A stretch of DNA of 64,000 nucleotides from a bacterium (GCA_031441465.1 JANOEP010000049.1:15210-79209); one strand, 5' to 3'. Shown: positions 8,229 to 63,683, numbered from the stretch's first letter. A program made the numbers and translations. Notes: generated by a model from the letters alone, not told the origin.

Positions 8229-8464
8229 GAATCCCCCCCGATTCCGACGATTCTCCATGCTGGCGTGATGGGACCCCCGCGAAATGATAGTACACATCCA
8301 GGAGCGCGCGGCAGGAAAATCGCGGCGTGGGGGCCGGCGAAACGGGGTCGGGGCGCCGTTACCAGGCCCGAGCCGACGCGCCCGCGGTTGCGAAGTGCGG
8401 CAGCCGTCGCTAATATCGGCGCCGGCAGGCAATCGGTCCGTGAACCGCAATCCGGAGGTTTGGC

Positions 8465-15964: not shown

Positions 15965-16202
15965 TTATGAATAATTAAATTCAACATTATGAGCCGGTTT
16001 CCGGCCCATCGCGCCACATCATATGAAAAAACCGTGAAGTTGTAGACAAATCAGAGGCTTCGATGTATCATCTTGCGAGCACAGAGTTCGTGGGCCGCGA
16101 TCCACTTTCCACGCTTCATAATCCTGAACTTGACGCCTGGATCCGACTCCCACTCGTGCCCTGCGCGGGAAACGTGTGTCCGAAGCAGAGGAGACAGAAA
16201 GC

Positions 16203-19625: not shown

Positions 19626-20026
19626 GGTGTTATCTCCCGATCGTATGTCCACCTGGGGCGACCCCGCGCGGGTCGCCGGCGCCGGGGAACATAATCACAC
19701 GCGGCGACCACGAACAACCACCAATCGGACGCCGATCCGCACCTCCGCTGCCACGACTGCCCCCGTCGCGTCATCATCGGATCTTGCACGGTCGGCCCGC
19801 CGTCGGTCCGGAAATGCCTGACCCGTGTCGCCCGCCGTCCGATTGCGGAACTCATCCTCAGCGTCGTGGGGAGCCTGCCGGGTTCCGGGCGGCTAGGCGC
19901 GACACCGCCGGCACCCCGGTCTCCCGTGCCAACCCCCCGTCCACGAGCACCTTGCGACCCTCGTGCGGGGCGACTGCAATGCCATGTGCAAAGGGATGTT
20001 ACGTAAACAGCGCCTGCCATGACCTG

Positions 20027-20042
20027 TGGCATATCGCTTGCA
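20027..20042 (+). promoter_or_regulatory. Sigma54 (-24/-12) promoter
   Basis: TGGCAT-ATCGC-TTGCA with exact GG(-24)/GC(-12) spacing, about 105 bp upstream of the giant gene. Confidence 0.75.
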
Positions 20043-20147
20043 CCTGGACCCGCTGGCCCGTGCCGCAACGCCGGATCTCCATGTCCGGCTTTGCATTCTG
20101 CACGGCCGTCCGCGACCCGGACGTCCCTGGATCCCTTCCACGGCGGG

Positions 20148-23100
20148 ATGACCATGAACGAGCGCACGCGCAGCAAGTTCGCCATCGCCAAGTTCGCCAC
20201 TGTCTTGGCTCTGGGCCTGATGGCCCTGGCCCCGACGGTCGCCCAGGCGTTCGACCACCTCGAGATCACGGTGATCAACCCCGAGATCGTCGACGGCCGG
20301 CCCTCGGTGACCATCTACGAACAGTTCAGCGTGCTCGTGCGGGCGGTGAACGCCGACGGCTCGACCGACACCGCGGCGGACTTCATCCGCGCCGCGCTGT
20401 CCTCGCCGGACGTGGCCGCGAACATGCCGGCGTCGGCCTACCTGCAGAACGGCGAGCGCATCTTCACCGGGATCGACTTCCTGGACGACGGGCAGCCGGT
20501 CCGGATGCGCGTCGCGGACCAGGACGACGGCTCGGTGCCGTTCGCCCAGGTGGAGATCAACTGCTACAACTTCGTTCACCATTTCGAATTCGGCGTGCCG
20601 CCCGGCGACAAGTTCGTCGGCCAGACCGTCGCGCTGACGGTCACCGCCCGCGATCATCTCAACGCGGCCGTCCGCAACTTCGGCGACGACGTGGTGCTGT
20701 CGCCGGCCCTCGGGCACTTCACCGCGGGCCCGTCGCTCACCGTCGGCGGCGGTTCGTTCGTCTTCGGCGTCGCCGCGGTCAACGTGGTCTTCCAGGGCAC
20801 CGATCCCGCGACGCAGCAGAACACGGTCAACGCCCTGAACACCGTCGTCTACCCGACGCAGGCCTCGGCCGCGATCGGCAGCGGGCTCGTGGCGCCCCTC
20901 TACCCCGGGACCCTGAACCGCGTCGTGCTGCTGCTGCCGGGCCAGACCCTCACGCCCGGCGTCAGTCCGGGCCGCAGCGGCACGGCCATCGCACAGATCT
21001 CGGGCTTCCCGTTCACCGGCATCGACGTCTACGCGACCGACCAGTACTGGAACCCCGTGGCGGCGGGCCCCTTCCCGACGCTGGCCTGGAGCGCGAACGA
21101 CGCGGCGCCCGGCGTGGCGCTACCCGCAGGCGGCCCCATGAGCAGCAACACGGTCCAGGACCAGGCGGCCACCCTGATGACCTCGGGCCTGCGCCAGATG
21201 ACCGTCACCGCGTCGGGGGCCATCTCGACCTCGAGTTCGGCGAACGTCCAGGTCAACCCGGCGGGCCTCCACCACTTCTCGTTCGACTACGCCGTGCTCG
21301 ACACCAACGTCGTCCAGGCGACCACGACCCCGTTCCAGATCCGGGTGCGCGCCTACGACTCGTTCAACAATCTCTTCCCGTACAACGGGCCGGTTTCGAT
21401 GCGGGTGCGCATCGGCGCGAGCGACGAGAGCGCCGACTACCTGATCACGACCAGCAACAACTTCGTCGGCGGCGTGCTGAACGCCTCGATGCAGGTGACC
21501 AAGCGCGCGTTCAGCGCCCGGATCATCGTCGACAGCAACACCGGCGTGGTGACGCTGTCGGGCGACTTCCAGGTGAACGCGGGTCCCATGGAGAAGGTCC
21601 TGTTCACGCTGCCAGGCCAGACCTGGACGCCCGGTCTGAACGACCCGGACTTCGGCGGCAACATCGGCCTGCCCACGCCGATCGTCGCCGGGCAGATGGT
21701 CGAACCCCTGGAGATCCGGGCCGTGGACCGCTACGGGAACCTCGTCTCCGGCGCGCGCACCGTCGCCATCACCTGCCCGACGGGCCACCTGCTGCTGCTC
21801 GACGGCGGGGGCAGCCTGATCGAGAGCGGCGTCATCAGCCTGAACGGGACCGGCGTCTACAGCGCGTTGATGGCGACGTTCGGCGACCAGGTGCTGCAGG
21901 CCGGCGTCGGCGGGCAGGCGGACAGCTTCTCGAGCCCCCTGCACGTCTCGCCGAACACCTACCAGCGGCTGATGGTGATCGCGCCCGGCGAGACGCTGGA
22001 CGCCGGCACGATCTACGCGCCCGGCAAGCTCGGCCTCCCGTCCCCGCAGGACGCGGGTGCGCCCTTCAACATCCAGGTCGTCGCCACCGACTACTACTTC
22101 AACCCGATCGACGCGACGAGCCCGTTCCTGCCGATCCCGCTCAGCTTCACCAGCACCGATCTCCAGGCGACCCTGCCCGCCGGGCCCCAGAGCCTGCAGA
22201 CCGGGACCGGCGTCTTCCAGGTCACGCTCAAGACGCTGGCCGACCCCAACCAGCAGCTGGTCACCGCCACCGACCAGGTGCGGTCCTACACCGCGTCCGC
22301 GCTGATCCCGGTCGAGGCCGGCGTGATCGACCACTTCGAGATCGGCGTCAACAACGGCACCAACCCCGACCCGACCGACAGCCTCGAGTCCGTGCCCGAC
22401 CACCAGGCCGGCGCTTGGCTGCCGAACCTCACCGTGATCGCGCGCGACGCCTACGGCAACCACATCCGCGCCTTCACCGACAGCGTCACCCTGCACCTGA
22501 ACGTGGACGGCGACGTGCTGGCGCCGGTGCGCATCAGCCTCGCCGACGGCTACGGCAGCGGCACCTACCAGGGCGTGTGGCGCGGCAGCCTGCGCATCAC
22601 GCGCGCCGGCTCGGGGGTCACCGTGTCGGCCTTGGACGACATCTACGGCCGCTCGGGCGTGAGTAACGCCTTCACCGTCTTCCCGGGCGCCTACGTCGGC
22701 TTGCAGGTCCTGCTGCCGGGCGAGACGGCCACACCGGGCGAAGCGCCCGGCAAGTTCGGCACCCCGTTGCCGGTGGTGGCCGGAGAAGAAGTGACCGCCG
22801 CGGTGTCCGCCCTGGACGCCTGGTGGAACCCGACGCCCGCCGGCCCCATCGTCAGGGTGTCGAGCAGCGGCTATGCAGACCTGATCTCGGCCAACGACGT
22901 GCCGCTGGATCCCGACGGCACGTCGGACTTCGCGCTGTCCTTCCGCACGGCGACGGCGCAGACGCTGCGCGCGCGGGACCTCGCGGTGTCCGCCCGCCGC
23001 GATTCCTGCCTCGCGACGGTGACCCCGGACGCGTTCTACCGCCTCCAGGCGATCGCGCCGGGAGAGACGCCGAATCCGGGCGGCCCCGAGGTCGACGGCA

Positions 23101-26100
23101 AGACCGGCGCGCCCGCGGTGCAGACCGCGACGCTGCAGTTCCCGCTGACCGTCAACGCCGTCGACCGCTTCTGGAACCGGGTCGACAACAGCTTCCACAA
23201 CATCCACCTCGGCAGCGACGAGGGCTCCATCGTGCCGGGCAACCCCCTGAACAACGGCCAGGCGCTGGCCGCCGGCGAGATCGTGTTCCCCGTGGCGATC
23301 TCGAGCCTCGGCTACGCCACGCTCACGGCCTACGACCTGACCGACGCCGGGATCCTGGGCCACGACGTGGTCGTGCAGGTTGCCGCCGGGGCCCAGTACC
23401 GGATCACGACCCCCGACACCGCGCTCGTCGGTCCGCCGAGCACCTTCGCCATGACCGTGGAACTGGTGGACGAGGCCGGGACCGTCATGGTCAACGCCTA
23501 CAACCCGGTCACCCTGCGCGTCCTGACGCCGACGCTGCAGCCGGCCCCGGGCGTGCTGCTGGCGACGGGCGCCCAGCTGACCGCCGGCGTCGTCACGATC
23601 CCCGGCCAGGCCTACGACATCGCCAGCCGCATCGTCGTCGAGGTGAGCGACACCTCCGGTCGGCTCGGCTACAGCGACATCATCCGCATGGACCCCAACG
23701 GTCTCTGGTACGACGTCATCGTCGGCACGACCCCGACGCCCGTGACGGGGCCGCCGGCGGCCTTCCCGGTGACGGTGCGGCTGCGCGACACCGAGACCGG
23801 GTCGCTCGTGGACGACGACCGTTTCTTCAGCGTCGCGGTCGTCGACGACGACGGCGCGCTCGGAGCGGGTGCCGTCGGCGTGACCACACGCCGCCTGGTC
23901 GACGGCCAGGTCACCTTCCAGCAGACCTACACGCAGGCCGGCGAGTTCGCGGTGCGCGCCTTCGATCCCAGCGGCCTGGCCGGCGACAGCCCCCTGTTCA
24001 CCGTCCAGCCGAGCGGGTACCAGCGGCTGCAGCTGCTGGCGCCGGGGGAGACGGCACGACCGGGCGCCGCCGCCTTCGCCGCCACCGGCAAGTCGGCCCT
24101 GCCCGACACCCAGCGCTCGGGCGAACCGTTCCCGCTCGCGGTGCGCGCCGTGGACCAGTACTGGAACCCGATCGGCGACGAAGCGTCCGGCCGGATCCAC
24201 CTCGCGGCGACCGACGGCTCGTTCTCCTGGCCGGACAACCCCGACCCGCAGGACGCGCCCTTCTTCCTGGGCGGCCGCGCCGTCGACGCCTTCCTGGTGG
24301 CCGAGGGCGAGGTGGGCGTGACCGTGAGCGATCTCGACGCGCCGCAGCTGCCGGGGCAGACCGTCGCGGTGCCGGTGCGCCGCCCGTACGCCTACGAGGT
24401 CACCGTGCCCGCGTCTGCCCAGACCGGCGGCATGCCGGGCTTCGCGATGACGGTGCGGCTGGTCGACCCCGACACCGGGGACCCCATCGCCGACGCGGGG
24501 CACCGCGTCACCCTGACGCCGCTGCGGGCCAACTTCGCGCCCGGCACGGGCGTGCTCGGCACCGCGGAGGTCTACCTGGTCAACGGCGTCTCGTTCATCA
24601 GCGACCAGAGCTACAGCGCCCTGGAAGACCTGCGGGTCCGCGTCGCCGACGACTACGGCCGGCAGGCCACGAGCGACGTCGTGACGATGGAGACGGGCGG
24701 CCTCTACTACGACGTGGTCGCGCCCGCGACCGCGACCGTGGGCGGCCCGGCCACCCTCCCGATCGCGGTCGACCTGATCGACAGCAACACCGGCGAGCGC
24801 GTGACGGCCCACAGCGGCCTGATCCAGATCTCGGTGCTCAGCGCCGCCACCGGCGAGGCCGGCGGCGGCGTGCTGGGCACCATCCAGCAGATGCTGACCG
24901 GCGGCCACACCGACATCCAGCAGACCTACACGCTGGCCGAGGAAGTCTACTTCCGCGTCGTCGACGGCGACGGCAACGAGGGCTTCTCCAACAGCTGCCG
25001 CCTGGAAGCCGACGGCTTCAAGCAGCTGCAGATCGTCGCGCCCGGCGAGACGCCCGAGCCCGGCGCCGAGGCCGGCACCGGCAAGATCGGCGCCCCGGTG
25101 GTCCAGACGGCGGGCGAGCCCTTCGTCGTGGAACTGCGCGCGGTCGACCAGTTCTTCAACCCCGTCACGTCGCTGGACGACGGCGCCCTGGAGCTGACCT
25201 GCTCGGAGCCCGATCTCTTCGCCTGGCAGAATCCCGCGGACTACCACGCCCCCTTCGTCGGCGGTCGCCGGCAGGTGGGGGTCGTGCTCGACGGCGCGGG
25301 CAACCTGACCCTCAGCGCCGACGACACCCAGCACCCGTCGGCCGGCCAGGGCCACGTGACCATCCCGGTGGCGGAGGCCGTCTACCAGGTCACCGTCCCG
25401 GACACGACCTTCGTGGGGCCGCCCTCGCGCTTCGCGGTGGGCGTGCGCCTGGTCAACCCGGCCACCGGGGCCACGGTGCCGGCGGGCAACCGCATCGCCC
25501 TGGAAGCGCTGCGCTACGACTTCGGCGCGCCCGAAGGACTGCTCGGCGTCACGGGGTGGACGCTGCTGCAGGGCTCGGCCGACATCGCCACGCAGAGCTA
25601 CGGCGTCAGCGAGCGCATCATCATCCGCGTGTCCGACGAGCGCGGCCGCACGACCGACAGCGCCGTGGTGACGGTCATCCCCGTGGGCGTGACCTACGCC
25701 GTGACGGCCCCCGACACGGTCGTCGCCGGCGAGTCCTGGCCGCTGTCGGTCACGCGCGTCGACGTGACCACGGGCCGTCTGGTCACCGGCTACGACGAGA
25801 CCTTCAGCATCTCGGCGATCAACGCCTGGTCGGGCGCGGTGCGCCCCGATCCGGCGCTCGTGCCGACGGGCGTGCTGCGCTACACCTACGGCGCCACCGT
25901 CGAGGGCCGCGCGCTGCTCGACAACCAGGCCTACGACCGCGCCGAGTCGATCTACCTGCGCGTGACCGACGCCGCCGGCGGCGACGTGCTCAGCCGCCTG
26001 ATCACCGTGCTGGCCGCGCCGGCCCGGTTCTTCACCCTGACCCTGCTCGAGCCGGACGGCTCGCCCTTCGACCGCGTCCTGCGGCCCGACCAGCAGATCC

Positions 26101-26939
26101 GCGTCCGCGTCGCGGCGCGCGACGAGGGCGGCAACCCGGCGCCCCGCGCCGCCGTCGCCTTCGAGATCCGCGCCGGAGAGGCCACGCTCGGCTCGGCGCG
26201 CGCCGGCGCGGTGCACCTGACGACCGGCAGCGACGGCACCGTCGAGACGACCCTGCGCATCGGCGCCTTCGGGACGACGGACGTCCTGCTGCGGGCCGGC
26301 GTGGACGCCCTCGACCCCGAGGAGGTCCTGCTGAGCGTGGCCGGGCCGCCGGTCACCACGGTGATGTTCACGGGCGTCGCCAGCGAGTACCTCGACGGCT
26401 GGTACGTCAGCGACGACACGCGGATCGCCCTGTCGGCGGTGCCGGGGATCCCCGAGGCGACCACGACGATCCGTTTCGACATCGATCAGGCCGACGGCGT
26501 GCAGCCGCTGACCGCCTACGAGGAGCCCTTCACCCTGGGCGACCTGATCCCGGGCGAATCCGGGGTTCATGTCCTGCGCTTCTTTGCCGAAGAGAACACC
26601 GGCGTGCAGGAGGCGCTGAGGGAAATCAAGCTGTACACCACGCAGGCGTTGGCCGAGGACCGGGAGATCACCAACCGCCCCAACCCGTTCAACCCCGTGC
26701 TCGAGCTGACGCGGATCCTGTTCAAACCGACGGCCGCCGGTACCGTGAACATCACGATCTACGACCTCTACGGGGCGATCGTGCTGAATCACCACCTGAA
26801 CGCCGCCGCCGACCAGACCACCGAATTCGCCTGGAACGGCCGCAACGGCCAGGGCGACGTGGTGGCCAACGGCGGCTACATCTGCCGGGTGACCGGCCAG
26901 GGCTTCGATTTCCGCCGCAAGATCGCGGTGGTGAAGTAG
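20148..26939 (+). CDS. Giant (~2,260 aa) secreted repetitive Ig-like surface protein with FlgD/T9SS-like C-terminal domain
   Basis: Signal peptide (...TVAQA-F); repeated PG[EQ]T...A.D.[YFW][WFG]N and Y.V..P...G.P..F units; C-term NRPNPFNP...IYDLYG...WNGRNGQGDVVANGGYICRV...KIAVVK; start 20148 or 20154. Confidence 0.85.
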   Translation: MTMNERTRSKFAIAKFATVLALGLMALAPTVAQAFDHLEITVINPEIVDGRPSVTIYEQFSVLVRAVNADGSTDTAADFIRAALSSPDVAANMPASAYLQNGERIFTGIDFLDDGQPVRMRVADQDDGSVPFAQVEINCYNFVHHFEFGVPPGDKFVGQTVALTVTARDHLNAAVRNFGDDVVLSPALGHFTAGPSLTVGGGSFVFGVAAVNVVFQGTDPATQQNTVNALNTVVYPTQASAAIGSGLVAPLYPGTLNRVVLLLPGQTLTPGVSPGRSGTAIAQISGFPFTGIDVYATDQYWNPVAAGPFPTLAWSANDAAPGVALPAGGPMSSNTVQDQAATLMTSGLRQMTVTASGAISTSSSANVQVNPAGLHHFSFDYAVLDTNVVQATTTPFQIRVRAYDSFNNLFPYNGPVSMRVRIGASDESADYLITTSNNFVGGVLNASMQVTKRAFSARIIVDSNTGVVTLSGDFQVNAGPMEKVLFTLPGQTWTPGLNDPDFGGNIGLPTPIVAGQMVEPLEIRAVDRYGNLVSGARTVAITCPTGHLLLLDGGGSLIESGVISLNGTGVYSALMATFGDQVLQAGVGGQADSFSSPLHVSPNTYQRLMVIAPGETLDAGTIYAPGKLGLPSPQDAGAPFNIQVVATDYYFNPIDATSPFLPIPLSFTSTDLQATLPAGPQSLQTGTGVFQVTLKTLADPNQQLVTATDQVRSYTASALIPVEAGVIDHFEIGVNNGTNPDPTDSLESVPDHQAGAWLPNLTVIARDAYGNHIRAFTDSVTLHLNVDGDVLAPVRISLADGYGSGTYQGVWRGSLRITRAGSGVTVSALDDIYGRSGVSNAFTVFPGAYVGLQVLLPGETATPGEAPGKFGTPLPVVAGEEVTAAVSALDAWWNPTPAGPIVRVSSSGYADLISANDVPLDPDGTSDFALSFRTATAQTLRARDLAVSARRDSCLATVTPDAFYRLQAIAPGETPNPGGPEVDGKTGAPAVQTATLQFPLTVNAVDRFWNRVDNSFHNIHLGSDEGSIVPGNPLNNGQALAAGEIVFPVAISSLGYATLTAYDLTDAGILGHDVVVQVAAGAQYRITTPDTALVGPPSTFAMTVELVDEAGTVMVNAYNPVTLRVLTPTLQPAPGVLLATGAQLTAGVVTIPGQAYDIASRIVVEVSDTSGRLGYSDIIRMDPNGLWYDVIVGTTPTPVTGPPAAFPVTVRLRDTETGSLVDDDRFFSVAVVDDDGALGAGAVGVTTRRLVDGQVTFQQTYTQAGEFAVRAFDPSGLAGDSPLFTVQPSGYQRLQLLAPGETARPGAAAFAATGKSALPDTQRSGEPFPLAVRAVDQYWNPIGDEASGRIHLAATDGSFSWPDNPDPQDAPFFLGGRAVDAFLVAEGEVGVTVSDLDAPQLPGQTVAVPVRRPYAYEVTVPASAQTGGMPGFAMTVRLVDPDTGDPIADAGHRVTLTPLRANFAPGTGVLGTAEVYLVNGVSFISDQSYSALEDLRVRVADDYGRQATSDVVTMETGGLYYDVVAPATATVGGPATLPIAVDLIDSNTGERVTAHSGLIQISVLSAATGEAGGGVLGTIQQMLTGGHTDIQQTYTLAEEVYFRVVDGDGNEGFSNSCRLEADGFKQLQIVAPGETPEPGAEAGTGKIGAPVVQTAGEPFVVELRAVDQFFNPVTSLDDGALELTCSEPDLFAWQNPADYHAPFVGGRRQVGVVLDGAGNLTLSADDTQHPSAGQGHVTIPVAEAVYQVTVPDTTFVGPPSRFAVGVRLVNPATGATVPAGNRIALEALRYDFGAPEGLLGVTGWTLLQGSADIATQSYGVSERIIIRVSDERGRTTDSAVVTVIPVGVTYAVTAPDTVVAGESWPLSVTRVDVTTGRLVTGYDETFSISAINAWSGAVRPDPALVPTGVLRYTYGATVEGRALLDNQAYDRAESIYLRVTDAAGGDVLSRLITVLAAPARFFTLTLLEPDGSPFDRVLRPDQQIRVRVAARDEGGNPAPRAAVAFEIRAGEATLGSARAGAVHLTTGSDGTVETTLRIGAFGTTDVLLRAGVDALDPEEVLLSVAGPPVTTVMFTGVASEYLDGWYVSDDTRIALSAVPGIPEATTTIRFDIDQADGVQPLTAYEEPFTLGDLIPGESGVHVLRFFAEENTGVQEALREIKLYTTQALAEDREITNRPNPFNPVLELTRILFKPTAAGTVNITIYDLYGAIVLNHHLNAAADQTTEFAWNGRNGQGDVVANGGYICRVTGQGFDFRRKIAVVK

Positions 26940-26947
26940 GAGAGGCC

Positions 26948-28282
26948 ATGCAGCGCCACGCGGACAACAACCAGCGCCAGCACCCCCGACGCGCCCGCGG
27001 TGCGACGGTCCGGCGATTCGTCGCGTTCCTGACCCTGGCGGCCGTCCTGGCCGCCGCGCCGGCCCTCGCCGGCCAGGACGGCGGCGCGCCCGGCGCGTTC
27101 CTGCGCTTCGGCAGCAGCGCCCGCAGCCTCGCCCTGGGCGGGGCCGTCGGCGCGCTCGGCGGCGACGTCGCCACCGTGTACTGGAACCCGGCCGCCTTGT
27201 CGCAGCTGCGCACGATGGAGGTGACGGCGATGGGAGCCACCCTCTTCGGCGACACCCGCTACTCGTACGTGGCGTTCGGCCTGCCGAGCGAGGGCCGGGG
27301 CACCTTCGCCTTCAGCGGCACCTTCACCAACAGCGGCGAGTTCGAGCGCGCGTCGGAGTGGATCGACATGAACGACACCTTCCAGGAGAAGGAAGGGATC
27401 TTCGCGCTGACCTACGGCCGCGGCAACAGCCGCCTGGGCTGGGGCGTCACCCTGAAGTCGATCTCCCAGGACGTGGGCGGCTTCACCGGCTCGGGCTATG
27501 GCGCCGACCTGGGCCTCTACCTGCGGCCCGAGCGCCGGCTCAGCCTGGGCGTCTCCTACCAGAACGCCCTGCAGCCCGAGATCACGCTGGTCGACCAACC
27601 CGAGAAGCTGGCCCGGACCCTGCGCGCCGGCGCCGGCCTGCATTTCTTCAACAACCGCATGCTCGTGCTGACCGACCTGGTCCGCACCGACGGGATGGAC
27701 CTGGACTTCCAGGGCGGCATCGAGACCTGGCCCCTGCGCCAGCTGGTGCTGCGCGGCGGTTACGACACCGTCCGCGACCAGACCAGCTTCGGGGCCGGCG
27801 TGCGCTGGCAGAACTGGCAGCTCGACTACGCCCACGTCGCGCACGACCTGGGCTCCACGACGGTGGTCAGCGCCACGATGCGCTTCGGCATCACCGACGG
27901 CGTCGAGATCCACAGCGACCGCCTGCGCTTCAGCCCGTCGGGGAACGACCGCAGCGTGTCCTTCGGGGTCGACACGGCGCTGCGCGGCGAGGTGGCGGAG
28001 TGGCGCGTCGAGATCCGCAACGACCAGGGCGAACTGGTGCGGCGGATCTTCGAGGAGGGCCCGCCGCCGGAGGCCGTGGCCTGGGGCGGCGAGGACGAGA
28101 ACGGCCGGCTGGTGGGCGACGGCGTCTACAGCGCCACCGTCTTCGTCATGGACGACCTGGGCCAGGAGTGGGACCACGAGGTCCAGGTGGAGATCATGGG
28201 CTTCCGCAACCGGACCCGGACCCCGATCCGCATCGACATCGACGGTTCCGAGAGCCTGAAATCGCGAGAGGACGACCGATGA
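26948..28282 (+). CDS. PorV/PorQ-family outer-membrane barrel fused to a C-terminal FlgD-like Ig domain
   Basis: GAFLRFGSSARSLALGGA...DVATVYWNPAAL (PorV/FadL-type N-term), DLG, LRGGY, LDYA; then FSPSGND...WRVEIRNDQGELVR...WGGEDENGRLVGDGVY. Confidence 0.75.
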   Translation: MQRHADNNQRQHPRRARGATVRRFVAFLTLAAVLAAAPALAGQDGGAPGAFLRFGSSARSLALGGAVGALGGDVATVYWNPAALSQLRTMEVTAMGATLFGDTRYSYVAFGLPSEGRGTFAFSGTFTNSGEFERASEWIDMNDTFQEKEGIFALTYGRGNSRLGWGVTLKSISQDVGGFTGSGYGADLGLYLRPERRLSLGVSYQNALQPEITLVDQPEKLARTLRAGAGLHFFNNRMLVLTDLVRTDGMDLDFQGGIETWPLRQLVLRGGYDTVRDQTSFGAGVRWQNWQLDYAHVAHDLGSTTVVSATMRFGITDGVEIHSDRLRFSPSGNDRSVSFGVDTALRGEVAEWRVEIRNDQGELVRRIFEEGPPPEAVAWGGEDENGRLVGDGVYSATVFVMDDLGQEWDHEVQVEIMGFRNRTRTPIRIDIDGSESLKSREDDR

Positions 28283-31200
28283 AACGACATCCCGCCGCCT
28301 GGCTGCCGGCCCTGCTGGTGCTGCTGGTCTTCGCCGCCCTGCCGGTCTTCGCCGGCGACGACGACTCGGTGGTCCCGAACGAGGATGCGCTCTGGCGCGC
28401 CGCCGGCGACACCTTCGCCCGCGACACGGACAAGAGCAACGCCCTGCAGCAGTTCCAGCTGTACCTGACCCATTACAAGAAGACCGACCGCGCGGCCCGC
28501 GCCCAGTACATGGTGGCCGAATGCTACTTCTGCAACGGCGACTACGACACGGCGCTGCGCGAGTACGCGAGGGTCGGGAAGTTCAAGGGCGGCGACCCGT
28601 ACCTTGCGGGCAGCGCGCTGCTGCGCCAGGGCGAATGCCAGTTCAACCTGGGCAAGCAGGAGCGGGCCCTGGAGACCTTCACGCAACTGCTGCAGCAGAG
28701 CACCGACAGCTTCCTCGCCGGCGAGGCCCTGTTCGCCATGGGCCAGACCCAGGCCTCGCTGCAGGACTGGCGCAGCGTGGAGAAGACCTACAAGCAGCTG
28801 CTGGCCGACCGGCCCGGCTACCAGAGGCTGCCGCAGGTGCAGTTCGTCCTGGGCCTGTTCGCCTACGTGAAGCAGGACTACGAGGGGGCCACGCAGCACT
28901 TCGAGAAGGTGGGCACGGACCTGGGCCTCTACTACCTCGGCCGCTGCCTCGAGGCTTCCGGCCAGTACATCCTGGCCGTGCAGCGCTACCGCCAGGCCCT
29001 GCGGCTCTTCCCGGACAGCCCGCTGGCCGACGACGCCGCGTTCAGCGTCGCCGAGGCTTTCTACAACAGCGACCAGAACAAGGTCGCCGCGCGCAGCTAC
29101 CGCGACTTTCTCGAAGGGTACCCCGACAGCAAGTTCGTGCCGATGGCGCGTTACAAGCAGGCCTGCGTGGACTACCGCTCCGGCGAGTACAACGAGTGCG
29201 TGCGCAAGCTCGAGGATCTCTGCAAGGATCTCGGCGGCGAGCCGATCTGCGCGCCGGCCAACTACCTGATGGGCTCGGCCTGGATGGCGCTCGGGCGGAC
29301 CAGCCACGCCATCTTCGCCTTCACCGAGGTGGTCAAGGGCTACCCGGATTCGGAACTCGCCAGCGCCGCCATGCACAAGGTCGTCTACGCCTACATCGCC
29401 GAGAAGAACTACCCCCAGTCCATCCTGATGGCACACGAGTTCATGGACATCTTCCCCGGCGATCCGCTGTCGGCCCGCGTCCAGGTGCTCCTGGGCTACG
29501 CCCACAAGGAGCTGCAGGAGTACGACCTCGCGGTGCGCGAATTCCAGAACGTGATGGACCGCCACGTCAACACCGACGCCGGCGAGCGGGCGCTGTTCCT
29601 GGCGACCGACACCTACCTGAAGCTGGAGCAGTACGACCGCCTGATCACCAACTACCACTTCATCGCCAACCGCCTGCTGCCCACGCCCAGCCCGTGGCGC
29701 GCGCGGACCTACTATCAGCTCGGCGAGGCCTACTACCACGAGGGTCTCTTCCGCGAAGCGGGCGGCATGTACCGGCTGGTGCTGACCGGCTACCCGCGCA
29801 GCGAGGTGGCGGCGGCCAGCCTGCAGGGCCTCGTCGCCAGCTACAGCCAGATCGGCGAGTACGACCTGGCCCTGGAGGAACAGGAGAAGTTCCTCTTCGA
29901 GCTGGCGAACGCCGACAGCGAAGAGGGCGGCAACTCGCTGGCCCTCGGCTCGCTCTACTTCAACCAGCACGACTACCAGAAGGCGCTGGAGGAGATCACA
30001 AAATTCCTGGAGCGCAACCCCGAAGGCCCGCAGGCCGCGGCCGCGCTGCTCAACCAGGGCGACTGCTTCTACCGCCTGCAGTACTACGAGAACGCGGTGG
30101 AGGCCTGGCGGAAGCTGGTCACGAACTTCCCGCGGGCGAGCGAAGCCGACGAGGCGCTCTACCGCCTGGCCGACACCCAATTCGGTCTGGCCCGCTTCGA
30201 AGAGGCGCGAGCCAGCTACCTGACGCTGCAGAAGCGCACGCCCGACGGCGCCCACGCCGCCGACGCCGCCTTCGGCTTGGCCAACTGCCACTACAACCAG
30301 CAGCAGGACCAGGCGGCGATCACGGCCTTCCAGGCCTTCCTCGAGGATTTCCCGGAGGACCCCCGCGTCGAGGACGCGGAACTGGGCATCCAGAGCTGCT
30401 ACTACCGCAGCGGCAAGGACATGGAGGAGTACCTGGGCACCCGTCCGGACAGCCCCCTGGCCGGGGACTATTACTGGACTAAAGGTCAAAACTTGTTTGC
30501 CGAAGGAAACTACGAGGCCGCTGCCAAGGCGTTCGAAAAAGTCACCCTGGACTACGCCGACAGCGAGAGCGCCCCGGGCGCCCTCTTCTACCTGGCCGAG
30601 AGCTACTACCGCTTGGAGCAGATGCCGATGGCGCTCGCAGGCTACCGCAGTTTCCTGAAGACGAACCCCGACCACGAGCTGGTCGGGTTGTCGCGCTTCC
30701 GCGAGGGCACCGTCCTGTACAAGACGGAGCAGTACGAGGAGGCGGCGGAAGCCTACGAGTACCTGGTCGACACCATGCCCGCCGGCGAGTACTCGCCCCT
30801 GGCCCTGTTCAACGCCGGCCTCTGCTACCAGGAACTCGAGGACTGGCCGGCCGCCATCGGCGCGCTGATCCGCTTCCAGGCGGACTACCCCGCCGACGAG
30901 CGGGCCAAGGGCCTCGCCTTCCAGATCGCCACGCTGTACCAGGACGAACTCGGCGATTTCGAGAACGCCGCGACGGCCTACCAGAAGGCGCTCGAGAAGG
31001 GCGAAGCCGGCATCGAGGAGATCGGCTACCGGCAGGGGCAGTGCTACGAGAAGCTCGACCGCATCGAGCAGGCCGTCGCCAGCTACGAGATGTCCGCCAG
31101 CGGCGCCGACGTCGCGGCCCCGCACCGCATCGCCAGCCTGGCCCAGATCGGCCAGATCAGCGAGGAGCGCGGGGACTGGAACACCGCCGTCCAGGCCTAC

Positions 31201-31293
31201 AACAGGATCGTGCAGACCAACGGCAAGCCGGAATGGACGGCGATGGCCGAGGGCCGGCTCGCCGAAATCCAGGCCATGTCCGCCGGCAACTAG
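28279..31293 (+). CDS. Large periplasmic tetratricopeptide-repeat protein (BamD/CpoB-like repeats, ~1,000 aa)
   Basis: Signal peptide; many TPRs of the form [FY]PxS..A..A.[FY]..[AG]..Y; ATGA overlap with the preceding gene. Confidence 0.85.
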   Translation: MKRHPAAWLPALLVLLVFAALPVFAGDDDSVVPNEDALWRAAGDTFARDTDKSNALQQFQLYLTHYKKTDRAARAQYMVAECYFCNGDYDTALREYARVGKFKGGDPYLAGSALLRQGECQFNLGKQERALETFTQLLQQSTDSFLAGEALFAMGQTQASLQDWRSVEKTYKQLLADRPGYQRLPQVQFVLGLFAYVKQDYEGATQHFEKVGTDLGLYYLGRCLEASGQYILAVQRYRQALRLFPDSPLADDAAFSVAEAFYNSDQNKVAARSYRDFLEGYPDSKFVPMARYKQACVDYRSGEYNECVRKLEDLCKDLGGEPICAPANYLMGSAWMALGRTSHAIFAFTEVVKGYPDSELASAAMHKVVYAYIAEKNYPQSILMAHEFMDIFPGDPLSARVQVLLGYAHKELQEYDLAVREFQNVMDRHVNTDAGERALFLATDTYLKLEQYDRLITNYHFIANRLLPTPSPWRARTYYQLGEAYYHEGLFREAGGMYRLVLTGYPRSEVAAASLQGLVASYSQIGEYDLALEEQEKFLFELANADSEEGGNSLALGSLYFNQHDYQKALEEITKFLERNPEGPQAAAALLNQGDCFYRLQYYENAVEAWRKLVTNFPRASEADEALYRLADTQFGLARFEEARASYLTLQKRTPDGAHAADAAFGLANCHYNQQQDQAAITAFQAFLEDFPEDPRVEDAELGIQSCYYRSGKDMEEYLGTRPDSPLAGDYYWTKGQNLFAEGNYEAAAKAFEKVTLDYADSESAPGALFYLAESYYRLEQMPMALAGYRSFLKTNPDHELVGLSRFREGTVLYKTEQYEEAAEAYEYLVDTMPAGEYSPLALFNAGLCYQELEDWPAAIGALIRFQADYPADERAKGLAFQIATLYQDELGDFENAATAYQKALEKGEAGIEEIGYRQGQCYEKLDRIEQAVASYEMSASGADVAAPHRIASLAQIGQISEERGDWNTAVQAYNRIVQTNGKPEWTAMAEGRLAEIQAMSAGN

Positions 31294-31323
31294 CCGGCTC
31301 AACTCAGAGAGAGGAACCTTCAC

Positions 31324-32049
31324 ATGCTGGGGATGTCGCTCACCAAAGTCATTTTCGGTTCGTGGTCGATGCTCATGCTCATCGCCTGCTCCATCGTCAC
31401 GATCGCCTACGCGATCGAGCGCGTGGTGTATTTCCACCGTTCCCGTTCCGACGTGCGGGCCTTCATGAAGGACCTCGCCGCCAGGATGAAGACCGGCGAC
31501 ATGAAGGCCGCCACCCAGTGGTGCGACCAGCAGAAGGGCGCCGCCGCCCGCGTCGTCAGCCAGTGCCTGCCGCAGGTGCACATCAACGCCTCGGAACTCA
31601 AGCAGCGCTTCGACACCGCCATCGAGATGGAGCAGGTGGAGATGGAGCGCAACCTGAGCATCCTGGGCACGATGAGCAACATCGCCCCGCTGCTGGGCCT
31701 CTTCGGCACGGTGATCGGCATCGTCCGCTCCTTCAACGACATCGGACGCACCGGCGCCGGCGGCAGCGCCGTGGTGGCCATGGGCGTCGGCGAGGCGCTG
31801 ACGGCCACGGCGGCCGGCATCTTCGTGGCCGTCATCGCCACGATCTGCTTCAACTACTGCGTGCGCCGCATCCGTACCCGCATCATCGAGCTGGAGGACG
31901 TCCGCGAGGAGTTCTTCTGCGTGCTGCGCGGCCTCGCGCGGCAGGACGGTCCCGCGTCTGCGCGCGCCAAGGCGGACAAGCACGACGTCAACGCCCTGTG
32001 CGACGCCGTCGTCACTTCGGCCCAGGAACCCGCCGCGGTCGGCCGGTAG
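31324..32049 (+). CDS. MotA/TolQ/ExbB proton-channel family protein
   Basis: APLLGLFGTVIGIV...GVGEALTATAAGIFVA. Confidence 0.92.
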   Translation: MLGMSLTKVIFGSWSMLMLIACSIVTIAYAIERVVYFHRSRSDVRAFMKDLAARMKTGDMKAATQWCDQQKGAAARVVSQCLPQVHINASELKQRFDTAIEMEQVEMERNLSILGTMSNIAPLLGLFGTVIGIVRSFNDIGRTGAGGSAVVAMGVGEALTATAAGIFVAVIATICFNYCVRRIRTRIIELEDVREEFFCVLRGLARQDGPASARAKADKHDVNALCDAVVTSAQEPAAVGR

Positions 32050-32064
32050 GAAGCGAGACCCGAC

Positions 32065-32496
32065 GTGGCACGATCCGACCGATCGCAACTGCACCAGGAG
32101 AGTTCGCCCAACATCACCCCGTTGGCGGACGTCACTACGATCCTGATCATCGTGTTCCTGATGACCATGCCGGCCATCCTCGGCAACGGCATCCAGGTCA
32201 ACGCGACGCGCGCCGAGGCCAGCGAGACCGTGGTCACCACGCGCGAGCAGCAGGACCAGGAGATGCTCATGGTGAGCGTCGCCCCCGAGGGCATCAAGAT
32301 CAACGGCGAGACGGTGGTGCTCGCGGAACTCGAGCGGCGGCTGAAGGACGCGCTCTCCACGCGCACCGACAAGACCGTCGTCATCGTGCCGAGCGACTTC
32401 GTGAAGCTCGGCGACGTGGTCGACGTCATGGACGCCGCCAAGGGCGGCGGCGCCAGCAGCCTGGCGCTCCTGAACCGCAAGGAGGGGGCGCGATGA
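32065..32496 (+). CDS. ExbD/TolR family protein (copy 1)
   Basis: PNITPLADVTTILIIVFLMT with the conserved Asp; C-term VVDVMDAAK. Confidence 0.88.
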   Translation: MARSDRSQLHQESSPNITPLADVTTILIIVFLMTMPAILGNGIQVNATRAEASETVVTTREQQDQEMLMVSVAPEGIKINGETVVLAELERRLKDALSTRTDKTVVIVPSDFVKLGDVVDVMDAAKGGGASSLALLNRKEGAR

Positions 32497-32903
32497 AGGT
32501 CTACCGCTACGAGTGCAAGACGAACGTCGCGCCGCTGATCGACGTCTCGCTGTGCATCGTCCTGACCCTGATGATGATCTCGCCGTTCCTCAACGAAACC
32601 GCCCAGGTGGTGGACCTGCCCGTGGCCCGCGCGAGCCAGATGGACGACACCGACAACACCGAGGTCATCTTCACCCTCGACGGCAAGATCTACGTGGGCG
32701 ATGAGCAGATCGCGCTCGAGGAGGTGCGGACCCGGCTGACGCCCCTGTTCGAGAACAACCCGGACGCCGTGGCGGTCATCAAGGCGGACAAGAGCCTGCT
32801 GTACGGTGATGTCGAGCGCCTCATCGCCGAGGTCGAGGGCGCCAAGGCGGCCCGCATCGCCATCTCCACCGGCAAGAAGGACACGGAGGGGGCGGAGCTA
32901 TGA
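32493..32903 (+). CDS. ExbD/TolR family protein (copy 2)
   Basis: ATG 32493 (ATGA overlap); TNVAPLIDVSLCIVLTLMM, VDLP.A, IKADKSLLYG. Confidence 0.88.
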   Translation: MKVYRYECKTNVAPLIDVSLCIVLTLMMISPFLNETAQVVDLPVARASQMDDTDNTEVIFTLDGKIYVGDEQIALEEVRTRLTPLFENNPDAVAVIKADKSLLYGDVERLIAEVEGAKAARIAISTGKKDTEGAEL

Positions 32904-34243
32904 TGATGCAGGAAATCAGTCGCCGCGCGGCGACGACGGGCGGCTTCACCGCCAGCTTCGTCATCCACGCCAGCATCATCCTGCTGCTCATGCTGATGAT
33001 GCGCGAGGGCGCCCGCAAGGCGGGCGAGGCGTTCGACGAGCTGACGGAGATCGCCTACATCGAAGCCCAGTACGGCGAGGACGTGGCCCAGAAGGTCCGC
33101 CTCAAGACGCAGCCGGTGGTCCAGCCGCAACAGGAGGCCCCGGCCGAAACGAAGCTCGACGAGGCGCCGGTCCCGCAGCCGGAGACGGCGCAGCCCGCGC
33201 TGCAGAGCCGCCCGCTGCTGCAGACCCTGCCCAACAAGCTGGCGACGCGGCCCTTGCTGCCGAGCCGGCGGGCCGCGGACGTGGACGCGCCCCGGCTGTC
33301 GACCGCCCAGCAGCGCCAGTTCCTGGACACCACTTCGCGCCAGCTGGATTCCCGGACCTTCGCCGACGCCGCGCCGCGGCTCGACACGCGCAACCTGCGG
33401 GATCCCTCGGCCATGGCGGCGGACGCGAACGCGCCGCGCCTGACGTCGAGAGAGGCGCAGGCCGCGTTCCAGGGCAACGACGTGGCGCTGGTCGGGCGCA
33501 AGAGCAGCGTGGACCTCTCCGAGGTCGACTTCGAGGTCGGGCAGGGCGGCACCTCGTCCGGCGGCGGCCGCATGGCGCTGCAGTTGGCCACCGGCGGCAG
33601 CGAGACGGGCCACGCCGGCCTGGTCGGCGGCCGTCTCGAAGAAGGCCAGACGGCCTACCAGGGTTCGGTGGCCGCGCTGGTCCAGACCGCGAAGGACAAC
33701 GAGCGGCGGGCCGCGGCCGCGATCGACGTAGCGGCTCCCGCGCGTTCCACCGAGGGCCGCACCACGCTGCTCGACTACGGCCCGGGCGGCACGACCGGCG
33801 CCACCGGCCAAGCCAGCCTGCGCGGCCGGCAGCAGGCTCCGGCCGAGGCGCCGAGCGCCGCGGCGGTGGCCCAGGCCACCGGCAAGCAGGCGGTGCAGCC
33901 GCCGACGCAACTGGCCGAGACCCAGGCCAAGGCCATGGGCGGCAAGGGCGTCTCGATGACCATCAGCGGCCAGATCAGCGACCGCAAGGTCGTCGCCAGC
34001 GCCATGCCGCTCTACAGCGAGGCGGCCCGCAAGGCCGGCTGGGAGGGCGTGGTGGCCGTGCACTTCACGGTCCTGCCCGACGGCCGGGTCAAGGACAACA
34101 TGTACTTCGATCAGACCTCGGCCCACCGCGACCTGAACCGGGCCGCGATGGACGCCGTCAAGCAGTTCCGCTTCGAGCCTCTCTCGGGCGCGGACCGTGT
34201 CGAACAGTGGGGGGTGATCACGATCGTCTTCCGCCTCAATTGA
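32900..34243 (+). CDS. TonB-family energy transducer with a long periplasmic linker
   Basis: N-term TM with SFVIH; P/A/Q-rich linker; C-term PLYSEAARKAGWEGVVAVHFTVLPDG...AAMDAVKQFRFEP. Confidence 0.88.
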   Translation: MMMQEISRRAATTGGFTASFVIHASIILLLMLMMREGARKAGEAFDELTEIAYIEAQYGEDVAQKVRLKTQPVVQPQQEAPAETKLDEAPVPQPETAQPALQSRPLLQTLPNKLATRPLLPSRRAADVDAPRLSTAQQRQFLDTTSRQLDSRTFADAAPRLDTRNLRDPSAMAADANAPRLTSREAQAAFQGNDVALVGRKSSVDLSEVDFEVGQGGTSSGGGRMALQLATGGSETGHAGLVGGRLEEGQTAYQGSVAALVQTAKDNERRAAAAIDVAAPARSTEGRTTLLDYGPGGTTGATGQASLRGRQQAPAEAPSAAAVAQATGKQAVQPPTQLAETQAKAMGGKGVSMTISGQISDRKVVASAMPLYSEAARKAGWEGVVAVHFTVLPDGRVKDNMYFDQTSAHRDLNRAAMDAVKQFRFEPLSGADRVEQWGVITIVFRLN

Positions 34244-34296
34244 GCGGAACCCCGACAACTCCATAGCCGACGAACCTGAGTCAAAGGACACACATC

Positions 34297-35235
34297 ATGA
34301 CTCGCAACGACTTCAGGGGATTGTTGACCATCGCCGCGGGCGTCTGCCTCCTGTTCGGCAGCGCTCCGGCCCCCGCCTGGACGGAACAGGAAACGGCCGC
34401 CAACCAGGGCCTGCCCGAGATGGTCGTGGAAGCCGAAAACCAGGTCCTGCAGGACATCACCAAGAGCACGTTCGAGGTCGCGCTCAGCGCCGCGATCATC
34501 GACACGTTCTTCACGGACTTCGATGAGGCGGTCCTGGTGATCAGCCCCGTCGAGGGCCTGCAACCCTTCCTGAACAACCCTCGCGACCTGCACAGCGACC
34601 AGGTCCCGCACTGCTGGCTGCGGGACCCGGCGCAGCCGCCGGTGGTGACGTTCTTCCCGGAAGACCCCGAAGGGCACCAGGCCCGCCGCTGGGCGCTGAC
34701 GGTGACCGACTTCCGGGGCGCCCCCTTCCGCCACTTCGAGGAGAAGGGCCAGCCGCCGGACCAGGTCGCCTGGGACGGCCGCGGGGACCTCAACGAGATG
34801 CTGCAGGTGGGCTACCCCTACAGTTACGTCTTCAGCGTCACCGACAAGGGCACCAACACCTACAACTACGCCGGGATCAGCTTCCGTATCCCGGCCGTGG
34901 ACTACCGCGAGAAGAACGAGCGGCGGCTCGAGTTCACCGGCGACGAGGTGTTCCAGAAGGGCGGCACGCTCCTGCGCGACAGCGGCCGCGGCTGGCTGAC
35001 CCGCGCGGCGGACCAGATCCGCCGGGACCATCCCTATTCGCCGCTGAAGGTCGTGGTGCAGGCGGAGAACAAGCTCCTGGCCCAGGACCGCGCCAAGGTC
35101 GTGGCCGAGTTCCTGGTCGGGTGCATGCTGCTCTCCGACGACTGGATCAAGGTCGAGGCCGTGGCCAAGCCCGATCTCCGCTCGGAGATGGACGGCTCGG
35201 TGAGCATCCGCGTGGAGCACGCTGCGGGAGTTTGA
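34297..35235 (+). CDS. Periplasmic protein: FlgD-like Ig domain + OmpA_C-like domain
   Basis: Signal peptide; WALTVTD...VAWDGRGD...YSYVFSVTD; then VFQKGG..L...LAQDRAKVVAEFL (OmpA-like). Confidence 0.6.
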   Translation: MTRNDFRGLLTIAAGVCLLFGSAPAPAWTEQETAANQGLPEMVVEAENQVLQDITKSTFEVALSAAIIDTFFTDFDEAVLVISPVEGLQPFLNNPRDLHSDQVPHCWLRDPAQPPVVTFFPEDPEGHQARRWALTVTDFRGAPFRHFEEKGQPPDQVAWDGRGDLNEMLQVGYPYSYVFSVTDKGTNTYNYAGISFRIPAVDYREKNERRLEFTGDEVFQKGGTLLRDSGRGWLTRAADQIRRDHPYSPLKVVVQAENKLLAQDRAKVVAEFLVGCMLLSDDWIKVEAVAKPDLRSEMDGSVSIRVEHAAGV

Positions 35236-35456: not shown

Positions 35457-36191
35457 ATGGACGCGACCAGCAGCTCGAAAGTCGCCGAACGACTGGCGGA
35501 CAGCCCGTTCGGCCGGAAGGTGGGGTCCGAGATCTGCGGCACCCTGCTGGACATGTCCGTGACGGTCGACTTCGAGGCCGGCGCGGTGCTCTTCGAGGAG
35601 GGGGACCCGCCGCAGGGCGTGTACTTCGTCTGCGAAGGTCAGGTCAAGCTGATCCGCTCCGGTCCCGGCTACCGCGAGCACATCGTTCATCTCGCCGAGC
35701 GGCAGGCCGTGTTCGGGGAGGCATCGCTCTTCATGGCGACCCACCCCGTGACCGCGGTCGCCCTGAAGCCGAGCACCCTGCTGCGCTTTTCCCGCGCCCC
35801 GTTTCTCGAGTACATGGCCCGCCAGCCCGTCCTGCAGGGCTACGTCCTGGAAGTCATGGCGGGCTGGCTGCAGCAGCTCATCGAGAAGATCGACGAGTTG
35901 ACCCTCTGCGGCGGCGCCCAGCGGCTGGCCCGCTACCTCGTCGGCCTCCACGAGAAGAACCCCTACGCCGGCTATGTCATCGCCGCGCAGGTGGAATTGC
36001 CGACCCGCAAGCGCGACCTCGCCACGATGCTCAACATGAACCAGCCCTCCCTGTCGCGCATCCTGCGGCAGCTCCAGGACCAGACCCTGATCGAGGTCAA
36101 GGGGCGCCGCGTCGTCCTGAAGGATCTCGAGGCGCTGCGCGGTCTGGCGCGGTTGCCAGAATTCAAGGGCGTGCACCGGGATTTCGCCTGA
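35457..36191 (+). CDS. Crp/Fnr family transcriptional regulator
   Basis: LFEEGD...YFVCEGQVKL...FGE (cNMP domain); QRLARYL; HTH DLATMLNMNQPSLSRIL. Confidence 0.9.
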   Translation: MDATSSSKVAERLADSPFGRKVGSEICGTLLDMSVTVDFEAGAVLFEEGDPPQGVYFVCEGQVKLIRSGPGYREHIVHLAERQAVFGEASLFMATHPVTAVALKPSTLLRFSRAPFLEYMARQPVLQGYVLEVMAGWLQQLIEKIDELTLCGGAQRLARYLVGLHEKNPYAGYVIAAQVELPTRKRDLATMLNMNQPSLSRILRQLQDQTLIEVKGRRVVLKDLEALRGLARLPEFKGVHRDFA

Positions 36192-63630: not shown

Positions 63631-63683
63631 GACGGGCTCCATGGGCGATGGAGAGCTCGGCGAAGGTACAGTAGTTGTTCAAG

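Follow-up and report, generated by a model that had tools for sequence, protein, structure and literature searches.

This study concerns an operon of eight co-oriented genes on the + strand at positions 20148-35235 of a 64,000-nucleotide stretch of bacterial DNA (hereafter, the window; contig C49:15210-79209 of a genome of 3.49 Mb in 74 contigs, 96.8% complete, with G+C content of about 70%, assembly GCA_031441465.1). The genes encode, in this order, a giant secreted protein with a tail of the type IX sorting kind (the cargo), an outer-membrane barrel of the PorV family extended by an immunoglobulin-like (Ig) domain, a large tetratricopeptide repeat (TPR) protein, an ExbB, two ExbD and a TonB-like protein forming a putative motor, and a last protein with an Ig and an OmpA-like domain. 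We give an even chance to the reading that the operon specifies a dedicated, accessory, proton-driven, envelope-spanning machine, built on the plan of the Agl-Glt core complex and supplemented with a PorV-type anchor and its surface protein. The gene content and order are conserved far beyond close relatives, two marker genes are absent from the same genomes, the barrel and the TPR protein are naturally fused in one lineage, and the barrel and the last protein have PorV-like and OmpA-like predicted folds, respectively. The genes are as follows.

20148..26939, + strand: cargo, 2263 amino acids (aa), signal peptide, repeated modules, C-terminal FlgD_ig / type IX-type sorting domain
26948..28282, + strand: barrel, 444 aa, PorV/PorQ-family 14-strand outer-membrane barrel with a C-terminal Ig (FlgD_ig) domain
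28279..31293, + strand: TPR protein, 1004 aa, secreted, YbgF/CpoB- and BamD-like repeats
31324..32049, + strand: ExbB/TolQ-family proton channel (PF01618, 98.6 bits)
32065..32496, + strand: ExbD/TolR-family protein 1, GTG start (PF02472, 68.3 bits)
32493..32903, + strand: ExbD/TolR-family protein 2 (PF02472, 66.5 bits)
32900..34243, + strand: TonB-like transducer, 447 aa (TonB_C, PF03544, 52.4 bits at residues 370-446)
34297..35235, + strand: last protein, 312 aa, periplasmic, with a signal peptide, an N-terminal segment, an Ig (FlgD_ig-like) domain and an OmpA-like C-terminal domain

The initial annotation of the window had described eight tightly packed co-oriented genes with neither a TonB-dependent receptor nor tolB/pal among them, and gene calls and profile searches confirm both statements. 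The barrel/TPR, ExbD/ExbD and ExbD/TonB junctions are 4-nt overlaps, the remaining intergenic gaps measure 8, 30, 15 and 53 nt, and the block contains no match to a Plug-domain receptor, TolB or Pal.

Homologues of the barrel are named "Candidatus Krumholzibacteria" on NCBI records. All eight genes were identified in 19 out of 20 loci from eight families of the phylum, the twentieth being interrupted by a contig end inside the TPR gene, and their order and strand are the same in all 20 loci, down to 25-30% protein identity (the counts are those of phmmer; tblastn alone overlooked ExbD in two loci and TonB in one). In a scan of a genome collection with the barrel alignment, one genome per species being retained, 12 of the 80 loci feature a barrel with the Ig tail, and eight of these carry all genes through the last one; three others are cut by contig or locus ends, and one (L085) has no operon genes after the start of the TPR gene. 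Two of the 12 are on the same chromosomes as loci L064 and L071. In L085, the operon appears to end inside the TPR gene after position 12302, with 9 kb of N-free DNA beyond. In the remaining 68 loci, which belong to other phyla, the PorV-family barrel is a plain one and has no adjoining TPR-motor module. The Ig-tailed barrel was not detected in single genomes labelled Latescibacterota, Zixiibacteriota, Gemmatimonadota, and Fermentibacteria; it is present in genome G156, labelled Eiseniibacteriota and flagged as unpublished, on which none of our conclusions rests.

Outside the phylum, when 1.84 billion representative proteins were searched with a profile, about 25 of the best 150 matches were full-length barrels with the Ig tail, many of them from low-GC sources. 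Word-indexed protein searches with the barrel, used alone or as a profile, returned only close relatives with at least 51% identity and members of the phylum, and are therefore no guide to its range in other phyla. A metagenome scan with four Ig-tailed barrels gave 80 loci, 11 of them with an Ig-tailed barrel. The complete operon order is seen in contigs L189 (32% GC), L187 (45% GC), where two further genes are inserted, and L185 (30% GC), where there is one ExbD instead of two. The inserted genes of L187 are a VWA-like gene between the barrel and the TPR gene (L187:8713-9873) and a 377-aa gene between ExbB and ExbD (L187:14333-15466), and in L185 a HAMP-like gene of 188 aa separates the barrel gene from the TPR gene (L185:2578-3144). 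One of these barrel clusters bears the NCBI name Candidatus Firestonebacteria; ESM Atlas names of look-alike clusters (WOR-3, Eiseniibacteriota, Elusimicrobiota) are treated as leads only. Gene order is conserved both within the phylum and in metagenome contigs of 30-45% GC, and, as far as they could be checked, none of the three observations that the initial annotation had named as refuting its proposal was made.

These data bear on an alternative in which an ordinary Ton system happens to follow an unrelated adhesin-barrel pair. A TPR-ExbB-ExbD-ExbD-TonB module with neither cargo nor barrel does exist on contig C9 of the same genome, as such an alternative would have it, but the order kept down to 25-30% identity and in the 30-45% GC contigs, the three 4-nt overlaps, the joint loss of two marker genes, and the natural barrel-TPR fusion (both described below) refute chance neighborhood, and we assign it a negligible probability.

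Homologues of the last gene were found in 100 of the 151 sampled genomes of the phylum (79 of the 117 good ones), and this gene is lost together with the barrel. In 19 out of 20 genomes that are at least 90% complete and lack the last gene, the Ig-tailed barrel was not found either; the sole exception, detected with the barrel profile, is G103, where an Ig-tailed barrel is located on a 2.3-kb contig. The last-gene profile produced only short matches to the Ig motif in these 20 genomes, in ten of them. SprA, encoded outside the operon (contig C54; TIGR04189, 470.8 bits), is found in all 151 genomes, in 147 of them above the cut-off.

The initial annotation had suggested that the motor energises type IX secretion in this lineage instead of GldLM/PorLM, and the genome has other type IX parts: SprA, a PorU-like gene (403 bits against the cut-off of 420) adjoining a PorV-family gene, eight PorV-family genes above the cut-off, and about 50 proteins with tails like that of the cargo. 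The succession of a barrel, a scaffold, a channel, a periplasm-spanning and a periplasmic protein also recalls the layout porP-porK-porL-porM-porN. In addition, the GldL/GldM models TIGR03513, TIGR03517 and PF12081 have no match in the genome, which means little, as the same models are silent in three Bacteroidota-labelled genomes. Of the check for sprA and gldLM, then, the first half gave a clear positive result and the second is uninformative. FGE-sulfatase, used as a lead to GldK/PorK, has five matches in the genome; the one considered (contig C61) adjoins an RND efflux set with no gldLMN-like genes, and those considered in two comparison genomes are EgtB-like. What decides here is the distribution: SprA persists in genomes where the marker genes are lost together (151 out of 151 genomes for SprA, 100 for the last gene), and hence the operon cannot be the general energiser of the translocon. 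Judging from this gene distribution, the operon is accessory; the proposed replacement of GldLM is not supported, and we consider it very improbable.

The barrel has been described in the initial annotation as PorV-like, with a plain FadL transporter as the alternative, and both profile and fold bear out the former. It matches the PorV family model NF033709 at 115.9 bits (cut-off 90), with FlgD_ig at residues 334-398, and the AlphaFold2 model built from an alignment of 21 sequences (mean pLDDT 79.7) has 14 strands followed by an Ig sandwich. The best solved folds are PorV structures from the Flavobacterium SprA complexes, 8gl6_F (E 5e-10) and 6h3i_F, with FadL and TodX ranking below, and the FadL/TodX family profile (Toluene_X) reaches 14.9 bits at E 0.0097 against the cut-off of 29.7. 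Given the even number of strands and the usual topology of such barrels, the Ig tail should, according to the model, face the periplasm. The N-terminal segment is among the most conserved parts of the barrel.

In metagenome contig L183 (41% GC), the gene of a 3110-aa tailed protein precedes one reading frame of 1344 aa, in which residues 44-311 form a PorV-family barrel (NF033709, 145 bits) and the remainder is a giant YbgF-like TPR protein; ExbB, ExbD, ExbD, TonB and the last gene follow downstream. The same fusion is present in nine protein clusters of 1206-1394 aa from several sources, with 36-79% identity across the barrel part, and hence is not an assembly error. To judge from these sequences, no other result of our analysis speaks as strongly as the fusion for a working contact between the barrel and the TPR protein, the latter likely residing in the periplasm.

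In a related family (L190:9809-11638, L200:9974-11605, L210:6856-8523; similar loci are L192-L202 and L218), the PorV-family barrel measures about 545-610 aa and is extended at its C-terminus by a short TPR part; its gene follows that of a giant tailed protein and precedes that of a protein of about 650 aa. In the distant cluster P0285, a barrel-like part, an Ig-like domain and an OmpA domain are combined in one protein.

The 1004-aa TPR protein matches TIGR02795 over 12 stretches (303 bits), as well as TPR families of Pfam. The nearest PDB sequences of the operon ExbB are TolQ (63 bits) and ExbB (54 bits), and the top models for the operon ExbB and ExbD are TolQ and TolR, respectively, in both cases below the cut-offs of these models. 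Both ExbD proteins retain the Asp in the membrane helix. The TonB-like arm, according to the alignment, starts with about 20 residues and a single membrane helix containing S-x3-H, from which a linker of about 300 aa leads to the TonB_C domain; the PDB sequence matches of this domain are TonB C-terminal domains. The S-x3-H of the TonB helix and the Asp of the ExbD helix are of recognised significance in motors of this kind.

The genome encodes seven MotA/ExbB-family genes. Apart from the operon, they belong to two ordinary ExbB-ExbD-ExbD-TonB modules, a TolQ-TolR-TolB-Pal-YbgF set, a flagellar MotAB pair, and two further sets. As there are two other Ton modules, and a canonical tolQ-tolR-tolB-pal-ybgF set is present on a separate contig (C46), the operon is neither the sole Ton system nor the Tol-Pal system of the cell, and its motor is not needed for ordinary uptake or for the Tol-Pal role. 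In the tree with the six paralogues from this genome, the operon ExbB falls outside the strongly supported pair formed by the two ordinary modules, which agrees with the earlier expectation that the Exb/Ton genes do not group with nutrient-uptake modules; beyond this pair, the tree is too poorly resolved to carry that expectation further. The ExbB of the C9 module pairs, with 100/100 support, with an ExbB at the start of contig C49. The C9 module itself (C9:157070-162795, - strand, L023) consists of a 617-aa TPR protein, ExbB, ExbD, ExbD and a 259-aa TonB, followed by genes of 124 and 324 aa; its order is that of the operon center, with no cargo and no barrel. A second site where a PorV-family barrel is close to an ExbB-family gene is L022 on contig C54 (C54:13678-24954, - strand), with a TonB-dependent-receptor-like gene, a 944-aa gene, a PorV-family barrel, a GWxTD protein, an ExbB-like gene and TolC.

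The last 90 residues of the cargo match FlgD_ig (PF13860, 33.7 bits, cut-off 27) and resemble the tails of at least 29 other proteins of the same genome. The body is composed of repeated "PGE/QT...D-x-[YF]-[WFG]-N" modules, which are probably Ig-like by their sequence, and no internal repeats were reported by self-BLAST. Orthologues of the cargo are invariably encoded by the first gene of the operon and vary from about 1000 to 3110 aa. A sequence search against PDB found no relative of the body, and profile and PDB sequence searches revealed no recognisable binding or catalytic domain.

The composition of the arm, the barrel and the cargo allows for another role, that of a TonB-powered importer of a new design, in which the barrel would be plugged by its own N-terminal segment and opened by TonB, and the giant protein would capture a substrate (such as a polymer or a hydrophobic compound) like the surface binding proteins that serve SusC-type transporters. 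The arm does end in TonB_C, known for opening outer-membrane transporters, FadL and TodX come second among the folds matched by the barrel, whose N-terminal segment is among its most conserved parts, and at the C54 site other PorV-family barrels of the genome adjoin a TonB-dependent receptor and an ExbB-like gene. This is opposed by the lack of a Plug domain in the operon, by the closer similarity of the barrel to PorV than to FadL in both profile and fold (the Toluene_X score is half of what its cut-off demands), and by the absence of recognisable binding or catalytic domains in the cargo; nor are ABC, MFS or other uptake genes kept beside the operon in the loci examined, for which no systematic screen was made. 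We consider an importer unlikely, at roughly one chance in five.

The last protein had been labelled an OmpA-like anchor, and at the level of fold this label holds. The Pfam OmpA match is faint (E 0.0084), and the AlphaFold2 model is confident at residues 105-310, where an Ig sandwich is followed by a beta-alpha-beta-alpha-beta-beta domain. Foldseek matches of this C-terminal domain are YiaD, PA0833, MotB, TssL and OmpA C-terminal domains, starting from E 3.5e-7. The N-terminal segment is conserved, has low model confidence and contains a conserved strand which, from its sequence, might at a guess be TonB-box-like in look. Complex prediction from alignments for residues 28-312 of the last protein with the C-terminal part of TonB (residues 345-447) gave 0.07 and 0.00 against the mark of 0.32, which speaks neither for nor against binding. 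The alignment of the last protein shows no conserved lipobox or lipoprotein signal.

With such a protein at its end, the operon might also encode a second Tol-Pal-like system for envelope upkeep (outer-membrane tethering, constriction or vesicle release), where the TPR protein would act as CpoB and the last protein as Pal. The best scores of ExbB and ExbD on the TolQ and TolR models, albeit below cut-offs, the 12 YbgF/CpoB-like stretches of the TPR protein, and the fold shared by the last protein with the C-terminal domains of Pal, OmpA and MotB all agree with it, as does, by description, a Fibrobacter OmpA-TPR-TPR-ExbB-ExbD-ExbD-TonB cluster, whose TPR and OmpA proteins are placed in a vesicle complex in the accessible text of the respective papers (PMC6851124, PMC4619616, PMC8092306). 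At the same time, the canonical TolQ-TolR-TolB-Pal-YbgF set is encoded elsewhere in the genome, the operon has no TolB, the arm ends in TonB_C and not in a TolA domain, the last protein has no lipoprotein signal, a good part of the phylum lacks the operon, and the giant surface protein and the PorV-type barrel are left unexplained. We regard a Tol-Pal-like role as rather improbable, slightly more so than import.

A candidate promoter element was read in the sequence upstream of the cargo gene:

20027..20042, + strand: sigma-54-type -24/-12 element TGGCAT-N5-TTGCA, 121 nt before the cargo start

A strict sigma-54 motif is present upstream of the cargo gene in eight out of 28 loci (background 0.0085 per kb), and a relaxed one, in 15 out of 28 (background 0.054 per kb), the gene-start estimates in these counts being rough. 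The genome encodes one protein with an RpoN box and 12 proteins with a GAFTGA motif. A scan with the sigma-70 consensus gave no sites, and no clear terminator was seen after the last gene. Three RNA libraries, from two studies, contain contigs that cover the first three genes with 90-95% identity; given this identity, the contigs derive from relatives. One of them (3562 nt) corresponds to positions 25506-29048 of the window, extending from the cargo gene over the whole barrel gene into the TPR gene and thus over two junctions. These contigs are a weak sign of expression as one unit; they can neither prove a single transcript nor locate the start of transcription, and RNA libraries may hold DNA. 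About 14-16% of sampled words from positions 19800-29700 occur in many unrelated metagenomes (sludge, biofilm, groundwater, cave, drinking water), and contigs from DNA run X3 are 90-99% identical to the same region. The word shares and this one aligned run suggest that close relatives are widespread; we draw no habitat claim from them.

The machine that we favor would operate as follows. At the inner membrane, the ExbB channel with a mixed ExbD pair would drive the long TonB-like arm. In the periplasm, the TPR protein would serve as a scaffold bound to the C-terminal, periplasmic side of the barrel. The cargo would reach the surface via the SprA type IX translocon encoded elsewhere, and the barrel may hold its sorting tail there, by analogy with PorV holding PorU and PorQ holding PorZ. 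The last protein could tie the assembly to the cell wall by its OmpA-like domain, and its Ig domain may dock on the Ig tail of the barrel. The force of the motor, applied to the outer-membrane module, might then move, expose or reshape the surface protein, resulting in adhesion or surface movement, as the Agl-Glt system does in Myxococcus. Expression would be under sigma-54 control.

Several observations weigh against this reading. The match of the cargo tail to the type IX sorting model TIGR04183 (21.4 bits) is slightly below the cut-off of 23. The wall-binding motif of OmpA-like domains includes an Arg, and in the last protein this Arg is kept only in the clade of the window itself. To our knowledge, TonB_C domains have no established partners other than the TonB boxes of Plug-domain receptors, and no such receptor is found in the operon. 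The ExbB tree suffers from long branches, and the operon sequences form one group in 0 out of 200 bootstrap trees. The modules are not inseparable: among the metagenome loci, L180 has the order barrel-ExbD-ExbD-TonB-last gene with no TPR gene and no ExbB, the order is permuted in L181 and L182, and in L184 and L196 the Ig-tailed barrel is followed by at least 6 kb with no motor genes. About one third of the sampled genomes of the phylum have no operon, and thus it is not essential. Finally, what our data show is gene content, order, conservation, folds, the joint loss of the marker genes, and the barrel-TPR fusion; we infer every physical contact except that of the barrel with the TPR protein, as well as the export of the cargo by SprA, the transfer of force, and the biological role.

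A bolder version seems to us possible, with odds clearly below even: an undescribed machine, widespread in uncultured phyla, in which a Ton/Agl-type motor, through a TPR scaffold on a PorV-type barrel, pulls a giant surface filament delivered by type IX secretion, yielding force-driven adhesion or surface movement. Possibly, an early relative of the Agl-Glt gliding motor has here been joined to type IX parts.

As for the surroundings of the operon, the nearest TonB-dependent receptor is located at positions 11403-13673 of the window on the opposite strand, 6.4 kb upstream. It is followed on the same strand by genes for thiamin pyrophosphokinase (10700-11413, - strand) and a sodium:solute symporter (9345-10703, - strand), and the whole group at 9345-13673 looks like a vitamin-uptake set. 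Further secreted proteins with a FlgD_ig-type sorting tail are encoded at positions 5841-8297 (- strand) and 16176-18122 (+ strand), one of them with a lectin-like Laminin_G_3 domain. Directly after the operon, ahead of rpsD, there is a gene for a Crp/Fnr-family regulator with cNMP-binding and HTH_Crp_2 domains (35457-36191, + strand). More distant features of the window are a group II intron reverse transcriptase/maturase with RVT_1 and GIIM domains (60207-61643, + strand) and tandem HDOD-domain genes (61717-62676 and 62701-63642, both on the - strand).

The Ton, Tol, Agl-Glt and GldLM systems are one kind of proton motor reused for work at the outer membrane, and with each use newly described a field has been opened, whether uptake, division, gliding or secretion. 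The operon couples such a motor to parts that are otherwise known from type IX secretion alone, and does so in lineages that have no cultured members; a natural fusion tells which of the parts touch. The operon also cautions against counting every metagenomic ExbB-ExbD-TonB set as a nutrient-uptake system.

Comparison with known systems shows what is shared and what is particular to the operon. With the Ton system, it shares the family membership of ExbB, ExbD and the TonB_C domain, S-x3-H in the TonB helix, and Asp in each ExbD helix; in contrast, it has no Plug-domain receptor, two ExbD genes, and a linker of about 300 aa. A profile search identified nine Plug-domain receptors in the genome, which the two other complete ExbB-ExbD-ExbD-TonB modules could serve. 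Similarity to Tol-Pal consists in the channel and the stator scoring best on TolQ/TolR, the CpoB-like TPR repeats, and the Pal/OmpA-like fold of the last protein, whereas TolB, the TolA domain, and a lipoprotein signal on the last protein are all missing.

The PorU-PorV and PorZ-PorQ pairs of type IX secretion (PorV in 6H3I and 8GL6) resemble the operon in that a PorV/PorQ-family barrel directly follows a type IX-style tailed protein. The operon barrel differs in its additional, predicted periplasmic Ig domain or, in one lineage, a whole TPR protein, and in sharing an operon with an ExbB-ExbD-TonB motor. The literature searched, which leaves out most subscription journals, yielded no account of a PorV-type barrel encoded together with ExbB-ExbD-TonB in one operon.

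The comparison with the Agl-Glt machine, made already in the initial annotation, proved apt. In the accessible text of its description, the "core complex" consists of one TolQ-like, two TolR-like and a TonB-like protein together with large secreted TPR proteins, encoded by aglR, aglQ and aglS with gltD, gltE, gltG and gltC, the GltD protein being 1191 aa long (Luciano et al., 2011, PMC3169522). The operon has the same plan in one cluster: one TolQ-like, two TolR-like, a TonB-like and a large TPR protein. The likeness is one of architecture, drawn by description, and only the operon has the Ig-tailed PorV-family barrel, the type IX-style tailed cargo, and the protein with Ig and OmpA-like domains. 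Furthermore, as no more than about 20 residues precede the membrane helix, the operon TonB-like protein has no FHA domain. GltC and GltE have no equivalents in the operon; the NCBIfam Glt models, which are narrow, score far below their cut-offs on the operon proteins (23.4 bits against 450 for GltC).

Copies of the core complex are also reported in Fibrobacter succinogenes (Luciano et al., 2011, PMC3169522). In strain S85, the eight-gene cluster FSU_2396 to FSU_2404, which we guess to be one of these copies, encodes OmpA, two TPR proteins, ExbB, two ExbD and TonB; its giant TPR protein is 146.7 kDa, and its expression is high and increases on cellulose (PMC6851124, PMC4619616, PMC8092306). The accessible text of these papers reports neither a PorV-type barrel nor a tailed cargo in this cluster, which is likened to the operon by description only. 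The function of the core complex outside gliding bacteria is stated to be unknown (Luciano et al., 2011, PMC3169522). In Myxococcus, the complex is connected with proteins of the outer membrane and with an adhesin on the cell surface. The operon offers a testable entry both to the role of the Agl-Glt core complex outside gliders and to that of PorV-family barrels outside Bacteroidota.

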